From IMG/VR virus record IMGVR_UViG_3300011268_000517, positions 22,558 to 86,557 of that record: a DNA stretch of 64,000 bases; one strand, 5' to 3'. This document shows, in pieces, positions 61,041 to 61,304 of the stretch. The notes under the pieces are model-generated. The model saw nothing but the letters and a program-made list of their open reading frames with translations, was not told the origin of the DNA and did not search any database. Position numbers and translations under genes: made by a program. Position 1 is the first letter of the stretch; each line of letters begins with the position of its first letter. Source of the stretch: a virus.

Positions 61041-61116
61041 TGGTCCACTCGCTGAGATTCGAACTCAGACCTCGATGATTAAGAGTCATGTACGCTACCA
61101 TTAACGCCACGAGTGG
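61041..61116 (-). tRNA. tRNA-Lys(CTT)
   Basis: ATGA-CTCTTAA-TCAT. Confidence 0.92.
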
Positions 61117-61176
61117 TTGTACGTATTGTTTTGATTTTACGTGCCAACTCAGACCATACGGGGGATCTGAGCGACA

Positions 61177-61197
61177 CTAACGTTTAGCACGTTTCAT
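61177..61197 (-). CDS. Mini-ORF MKRAKR* with strong SD, upstream of the two tRNA-Lys genes
   Basis: AAAGGAGAACGACA-ATG AAA CGT GCT AAA CGT TAG. Confidence 0.5.
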   Translation of the reverse strand: MKRAKR

Positions 61198-61304
61198 TGT
61201 CGTTCTCCTTTGAACATTGTTACCAAACAAAGGCACACTATCACGGCTACCACACCTTTCGATGTCCTGTGACCGCACTTCAGGTTACATAATGTGCTTT
61301 TGTT

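Follow-up and report, generated by a model that had tools for sequence, protein, structure and literature searches.

Bacterial tRNA output is usually held to be set at transcription, with processing taken to be constitutive. Control by a ribosome reading a leader is familiar from the leader-peptide transcription attenuators (trpL, hisL, thrL and pheM of pheST), in which the position of a ribosome on a short ORF led by a Shine-Dalgarno (SD) sequence and holding cognate codons picks between mutually exclusive helices, and scarcity turns expression on. In the translational attenuators, such as ermCL and the cat leaders, the leader ribosome instead drives refolding after transcription. In work on phage T5 and PARIS/AriB, a tRNA-Lys(UUU) supplied by the phage can restore translation after cleavage of the host tRNA (PMC11464382, PMC12409363), and tRNA-Lys(UUU) is a shown target of PARIS/AriB (PMC12409363).

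Here we describe an element that precedes two tRNA-Lys genes in the tRNA array of a T4-like phage. The element is almost certainly real and under selection, and the sequences make it quite likely that it exerts cis-acting, ribosome-gated control of tRNA-Lys maturation in the direction that we propose below.

Results

Genomic setting

We analyzed a 64,000-nucleotide stretch of DNA (the window) taken from a 95-kb linear virus record. Its baseplate genes are T4-like and it encodes a single-strand binding protein of the gp32 type; ARAGORN called 32 tRNA genes and a permuted tmRNA within it. The element lies on the minus strand, to which all of its coordinates refer, inside the tRNA array and flanked by a tRNA-Gln gene and two tRNA-Lys genes. 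An SD (AAAGGAG, 61205..61211) leads a mini-ORF encoding MKRAKR and a stop (61177..61197), which is followed by hairpin P1 (61177-61141), tRNA-Lys(CUU) with its CCA encoded (61041..61116) and tRNA-Lys(UUU), the cognate AAA decoder (60963..61037), all of them where the original prediction had placed them. About 270 nt upstream of the element, a near-consensus sigma-70-like promoter (61463..61491, minus strand), recognized by its match to the consensus at 11 of 12 positions, is the probable transcript start for tRNA-Gln, the switch and the Lys tRNAs.

Several other features of the window were noted. The tmRNA is encoded in two permuted pieces (27123-27506) with the tag ANDELFALAA, a possible clue to the host. 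Anticodons that are rare in bacteria occur in Thr(AGU) (55114-55189), Ser(AGA) (59260-59349) and Ile(UAU) (57926-58019) tRNAs, and tRNA-like stretches at 59066-59153, 58820-58880 and 59715-59843, missed by ARAGORN, gave weak Rfam tRNA, tRNA-Sec or tmRNA scores. Short CAGCAA-containing modules are repeated between tRNAs (60422-60479, 56629-56682 and about 59630-59715), and a DUF2828/DUF7788 gene (51636-53165; PHROG 850, RNA-binding protein) lies near them. Host-like metabolic genes at 61949-63172 and 48884-51289 comprise ORFs that by eye resemble IscU/IscA/HesB and acyl carriers, and a tandem of three fatty acid desaturases.

Distribution of the element

The mini-ORF and hairpin recur together in other tRNA arrays, as they should if the original prediction held: we found the element in more than 200 distinct sequences from uncultured freshwater phages. 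The exact 21-nt ORF DNA is present on 54 IMG/VR contigs, where the hairpin comes next wherever the contig reaches and a called tRNA-Lys nearly always follows the two, while the sequence 5' of the SD is unrelated and freely variable. Because the hairpin always follows while the DNA 5' of the SD varies freely, this recurrence is far above chance.

Loci were collected with patterns derived from the element family itself, and the ORF was omitted from the search patterns to prevent circularity; these ORF-free searches always recovered SD-ATG-(6-10 codons)-TAG. A pattern describing only the hairpin gave 74 distinct true matches, and AAA-NNN-TAG abuts the hairpin in 73 of them. The lone exception, L060 (7128-7190), has AAA one base further away and no abutting TAG; its frame enters the hairpin 5' arm and stops there, which offers a natural test of the unwinding model. 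A metagenome pattern that included neither the Lys codon nor the antisense segment recovered 106 true elements (AAA at this position in 102, AAG in 4), and a pattern restricted to the tRNA junction led to the element in 30 of 30 new CUU-UUU tandems with sufficient upstream DNA. Loci that apparently had no tRNA-Lys(UUU) turned out to carry the gene, which ARAGORN had overlooked.

The module sits mid-array and travels with Lys tRNAs only. Its upstream neighbor is drawn from at least 25 different tRNA types, and in L213 and L232 the whole module is duplicated, each copy retaining its own ORF; such a variety of neighbors and duplication as a unit are as expected for a local, portable switch.

Bacterial genomes gave zero matches to the strict pattern, and a loose pattern returned chance matches and a single true element. 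The latter lies in a Planktophila MAG on a 1.5-kb contig with a tRNA array, probably a mis-binned phage piece, and we infer no host from it. The cultured phages searched yielded only a partial tRNA-Lys match. Contigs from four metatranscriptome studies span ORF, hairpin and tRNA in relatives, but are mute on strand, ends and processing and may hold DNA, so we do not count them as support. A search of Rfam with the leader (61117-61211) at E values up to 5 matched zero families other than tRNAs, and the element is described nowhere in the literature searched, most subscription papers having been outside its reach.

The mini-ORF as a putative lysine sensor

The distance from ATG to hairpin is 21, 24, 27 or 30 nt in almost all elements and keeps the frame in 223 of 224, the single out-of-frame case being a parsing artefact. 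Of 226 elements, 224 have an SD-like run ahead of the ATG, with varying letters; codons change synonymously across the mini-ORFs, and in-frame stops are absent. By these measures the mini-ORF appears to act like a translated one. Length changes by whole codons, synonymous changes, variable SD letters, the absence of in-frame stops and a peptide that varies everywhere except at M and K make it extremely unlikely that the region operates untranslated, as an RNA-only or protein-gated switch, or through a functional basic peptide, even though the GGAG could bind protein and the ORF in MKRAKR versions can form a 5-bp hairpin.

The mini-ORFs of relatives span 6-10 codons, nearly all with an M-K start and a K-x-TAG end, and encode peptides such as MKRAKR, MKRSGKR, MKRGKL, MKRTGKL, MKLDKI, MKASKS and MKHDKM; apparent MKR-stop ORFs proved to be MKRSMKR. 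Three things are constant: the start, Lys at codon 2 (61192-61194 in the window; one MNR variant is known in the family) and Lys two codons before the stop (61183..61185), which is AAA in 199 and AAG in 3 of 202 elements and stands a constant 9 nt 5' of the TGTC hairpin base. The codon before this AAA is mostly GGT, GCT, GCG or AGT, and the last codon of the mini-ORF specifies R, L, P, S, Q, I or C. Sensing of both Lys and Arg had originally been proposed. The lysine half stands, given the constant Lys at -2, but the arginine half falls: Arg is common at codon 3 yet dispensable, and the existence of MKLDKI, MKASKS and MKHDKM shows it to be replaceable at both positions. Because Arg is dispensable, we read the mini-ORF as a Lys sensor.

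Some of these features would also suit a sensor of ribosome activity in general, responding to initiation, UAG termination or translation shut-off, with the Lys codons incidental. AAA is a favored second codon, TAG and the spacing are conserved as strongly as AAA, and any block before the last two codons keeps the hairpin closed. We nevertheless consider a general sensor unlikely, since searches that did not select for Lys at -2 returned it in every true element while its neighbors vary, this codon is cognate to the tRNA under control, TAG has a G that is accounted for by its pair at the hairpin base, and other tRNAs of the same arrays have no such ORFs, mini-ORFs occurring before them at background level only. 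Lysine sensing remains our preferred reading of the mini-ORF.

Hairpin P1, helix P3 and a probable pseudoknot

Hairpin P1 has a folding energy of -19.4 kcal/mol (z -4.5; 0 of 200 shuffles), its arms covary (0 of 5000 swaps), and one locus, L335, shows a compensatory change at the stem base. The 5' arm (61164..61177) begins with the G of the stop codon, and the 3' arm occupies 61141..61155. A pairing of the ORF with this 3' arm (ACGTGCTA with TGGCACGT) is possible in MKRAKR versions and lost in MKRSGKR and MKRGKL versions, and was rejected.

Alternatively, the lower part of the 3' arm can form helix P3 with the leader of tRNA-Lys(CUU) and the first few bases of the tRNA itself. This helix, put forward in the original prediction, exists, but the window has a weak form of it, 4+5 bp interrupted by an internal loop. 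Its outer part covaries across relatives, with cognate pairs at -8.9 vs swapped pairs at -6.1 kcal/mol (0 of 5000 swaps), whereas its inner CGTA/TACG part shows no covariation (1548 of 5000) and was discarded. The conserved TAC of the leader tracks the P1 loop and not CACGTA (6 vs 1548 of 5000 swaps). Together with compensatory cases in L049, L190, L191, L196, L201, L226 and L307, this swap test suggests that the leader segment ATACG (61122..61126) more likely pairs with the loop CGTAT (61156-61160) as a pseudoknot than, as first supposed, its TACG with CACGTA. An A-rich linker (61127..61140), whose A-richness is conserved, would serve as loop 3 if the pseudoknot is of the H type, and the pattern suggests, with moderate confidence, that such a pseudoknot shields the loop in the closed state.

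An antisense helix across the CUU/UUU junction

The P1 loop and the top of the 3' arm together form an antisense segment (61152..61164) that in the window is complementary over 13 bp to the junction of the two Lys tRNAs (61033..61045), which is made up of G72-A73-CCA of tRNA-Lys(CUU), a 3-nt spacer and nucleotides 1-5 of tRNA-Lys(UUU), and contains the UUU RNase P site. In the family, this 12-14-bp helix would be the main lock, in place of the modest helix originally proposed on the 5' strand of the CUU tRNA (CCACTC). Its energy is -24.7 kcal/mol for cognate partners vs -20.4 for swapped partners (0 of 10000 permutations, which leave shared ancestry in place) and -8.9 for shuffled ones. At least 12 rigid pairs form in 142 of 172 elements, and about 20 of the 172 have a bulge or a short rigid helix.

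The lengths of loop and spacer are matched (4/3, n=107; 5/4, n=41; 6/5, n=3; 7/6, n=2). About 40 elements carry an additional T in the loop together with an additional A in the spacer, insertions of two and three bases are matched likewise, and the 5' letters of the loop follow letters 1-5 of the tRNA (CCCCC/GGGGG, ATCCC/GGGAT, CTTCC/GGAAG, CGTCC/GGACG). On a rough tree of tRNA bodies, which is noisy at about 115 nt of tRNA and gives only rough numbers of independent changes, loop and spacer lengths change 38 and 36 times and their difference 16 times; differing sister pairs match exactly in 9 of 16 cases, and matched changes span several distinct sequence classes. A helix of 12 or more bp spans the -1/+1 cleavage bond in 182 of 219 genes for tRNA-Lys(UUU); at the same loci, 75 of 4228 other tRNAs have one.

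On the minus strand of the window, long stems built from the encoded CCA of tRNA-Lys(UUU) and tRNA-Gln also enclose a variable interior, at 60885-60966 and 61223-61307. The closing arm of such a stem extends into the start of the following tRNA in L090 and L077 (Met, His), an overlap that may explain the 44 Met genes with helices of 12 or more bp.

Where the CUU tRNA is absent or a stub (L047, L069, L079, L226 and L254), the antisense segment still fits the leader and 5' end of tRNA-Lys(UUU). Because it persists when the CUU tRNA is lost, we take tRNA-Lys(UUU) as the target, and this tRNA would be the primary regulated product. tRNA-Lys(CUU) cannot read AAA and tRNA-Lys(UUU) can, so a UUU target removes a weakness of the earlier reading. 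In L079 (3' of the match at 3220-3253, minus strand), tRNA-Lys(CUU) has shrunk to an acceptor-stem mini-hairpin and the UUU antisense is retained.

P1, P3 and the antisense helix share bases and each covaries, making them mutually exclusive helices. Comparison thus establishes conservation, frame, fixed spacing and covarying, mutually exclusive helices.

Predicted effect on tRNA maturation

Between 61387 and 60800 there is no intrinsic terminator and no U run after either fold, and only tRNA genes lie downstream of the element; lacking a terminator, it is not a classical attenuator. An output by Rho-dependent termination or by decay of the whole downstream transcript, as opposed to local maturation, is very unlikely, given that no intrinsic terminator is present in this interval, that the covarying target is the processing junction itself, and that the module is placed mid-array and moves with its Lys tRNAs alone.

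RNase P needs RCCA for its L15 loop, and pairing of the leader/RCCA or near the cleavage site inhibits it (PMC9433436). The locked state pairs the ACCA of tRNA-Lys(CUU), the leader of tRNA-Lys(UUU) and 4-6 UUU acceptor bases; of the 172 elements, 138 have 4-6 of the 7 UUU acceptor-strand bases tied up in this way. Pairing of ACCA and leader in the locked precursor would block RNase P at the UUU site.

The switch might conceivably run in the opposite direction, with the antisense helix aiding processing, for example as a cut site parting the two tRNAs, and translation turning tRNA-Lys on. The helix is the lowest-energy fold, stacks on a CUU acceptor stem that is fully folded, and could be a transient processing intermediate. 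We judge this direction improbable: it must accommodate the occupied acceptor strand in those 138 elements, the ACCA and the leader are both paired, known anti-determinants of RNase P (PMC9433436), and the outcome would be positive feedback, with more tRNA-Lys when Lys decoding is already good. Our preferred direction remains one in which the antisense helix locks the tRNA pair.

Ribosome position and folding energies

Counted from the first P-site base of a ribosome that has AAA in its A site, the stop codon's G falls at +12 and the following T at +13, and the hairpin begins at that G. In bacteria the mRNA channel accommodates 11 nt past +1, and binding of tRNA to the A site is slowed by stem-loops 11-12 nt downstream (PMC7282821). 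With this channel length and this hairpin start, a stalled ribosome should leave the hairpin whole, and it may by analogy be more sensitive to tRNA-Lys supply owing to the hairpin at its entry edge. Two further codons would be expected to unwind about 6-7 base pairs.

Folding calculations, in which neither pseudoknot energy nor tRNA tertiary energy is counted, gave for 163 elements a mean ON-to-OFF barrier of 18.1, 13.8, 10.3 and 7.8 kcal/mol with 0, 3, 6 and 9 nt removed. For the window sequence, covering 6 nt lowered the barrier from 17.7 to 11.1 kcal/mol and moved the locked state from -0.5 to -5.4 kcal/mol. Even with the hairpin intact the model often favors the locked state, on average by -4.5 to -5.5 kcal/mol and in the window by -0.5. 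The switch would therefore have to be kinetic or depend on terms outside the model; it is best read as kinetic. With 6 nt covered, the upper stem is mostly closed in nascent RNA (masked 0.78), so invasion would need to initiate from the loop.

Discussion

From the comparisons above we infer translation of the mini-ORF, the direction of the switch, the RNase P block, decay and a biological trigger, combined in the following model. The precursor would first fold the local hairpin and probably the pseudoknot, masking the antisense segment, and a ribosome would load on the mini-ORF. When tRNA-Lys(UUU) is scarce (uncharged, cut or unmodified), this ribosome would wait with AAA in its A site and the hairpin would stay intact at its mRNA entry edge, so that both Lys tRNAs could fold and be released by RNase P and exonucleases. 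When Lys decoding is normal, the ribosome would advance two codons to UAG and unwind about 6-7 base pairs, and the freed antisense would invade the junction of the two tRNAs. The ACCA of the CUU tRNA, the RNase P site of the UUU tRNA and 4-6 bases of the UUU acceptor strand would then be buried, with helix P3 covering the CUU 5' end. The locked pair would stay immature and probably be degraded, and neighboring tRNAs of the array would be unaffected. The result would be negative feedback in which tRNA-Lys matures upon failure of Lys decoding. In outline, the idea that the hairpin is disrupted and the tRNA sequestered once a ribosome reaches the stop, while stalling permits maturation, was already part of the original prediction, and frame conservation, geometry and covariation all fit it.

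We think it likely that the element represents a form of "processing attenuation", in which a leader ribosome reads a single Lys codon and a pseudoknot-masked cis antisense decides whether RNase P frees the cognate tRNA from its polycistronic precursor, providing tRNA-Lys on demand when an anticodon nuclease, for example, deprives the host of tRNA-Lys(UUU). The candidate triggers are a host nuclease, starvation and lost modification, and by analogy a link of the element to PrrC/PARIS is plausible. Most tRNA-Lys(UUU) genes of the family (60963-61037 in the window) have C39; the E. coli tRNA has U there, inside the run that AriB recognizes (PMC12409363), and the C39 might confer resistance to AriB.

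If the model is true, one tRNA of a 30-tRNA array is switched singly and post-transcriptionally by feedback from its own codon, which bears on why phages carry tRNAs. A sensor tied to tRNA-Lys(UUU) suggests inducible counter-defence or an avoided cost of surplus tRNA. The unit spans only about 250 nt and needs only ribosomes and RNase P, and its more than 200 natural variants are ready compensatory mutants.

Among known systems, the stem-loops of the dnaX and HIV gag-pol frameshift signals are alike in that a stable structure lies 11-12 nt past the P-site +1 and there delays the binding of tRNA to the A site (PMC7282821). Unlike them, the element has no slippery heptamer and no downstream reading frame, a tRNA gene following instead, and its structure is a mask for an antisense strand. 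With the T-box riboswitch, in which UGGN pairs in trans with the NCCA of a free, uncharged tRNA, it shares a UGGU run complementary to the ACCA end of a tRNA and, in our model, feedback on decoding capacity. It differs in having no Stem I, specifier, terminator or Rfam match, and its pairing would be in cis, through the precursor spacer into the next tRNA; covariation runs through that spacer, pointing to cis pairing. The excerpted T5 and PARIS/AriB accounts (PMC11464382, PMC12409363) describe no conditional maturation.

The attenuators stand closest. As in the translational kind, a leader ribosome would drive post-transcriptional refolding, but here the refolded RNA would hide an RNase P site and a CCA end and not a ribosome-binding site, only tRNA genes lying downstream with no SD or start of a protein gene for the alternative helix to hide, and stalling would preserve the hairpin instead of melting it. 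The leader-peptide attenuators offer the nearest sensor: conservation suggests the same short, SD-led ORF with a cognate codon, a ribosome whose position would pick between exclusive helices, and scarcity that would turn expression on. The sensor half is thus borrowed from attenuation, while for the output we found no published precedent. Unlike these attenuators, the element has no terminator, sits inside a tRNA array and uses an ORF of only 6-10 codons with one critical codon, and as its output it is predicted to control, by way of a cis antisense helix, whether a stable RNA matures.
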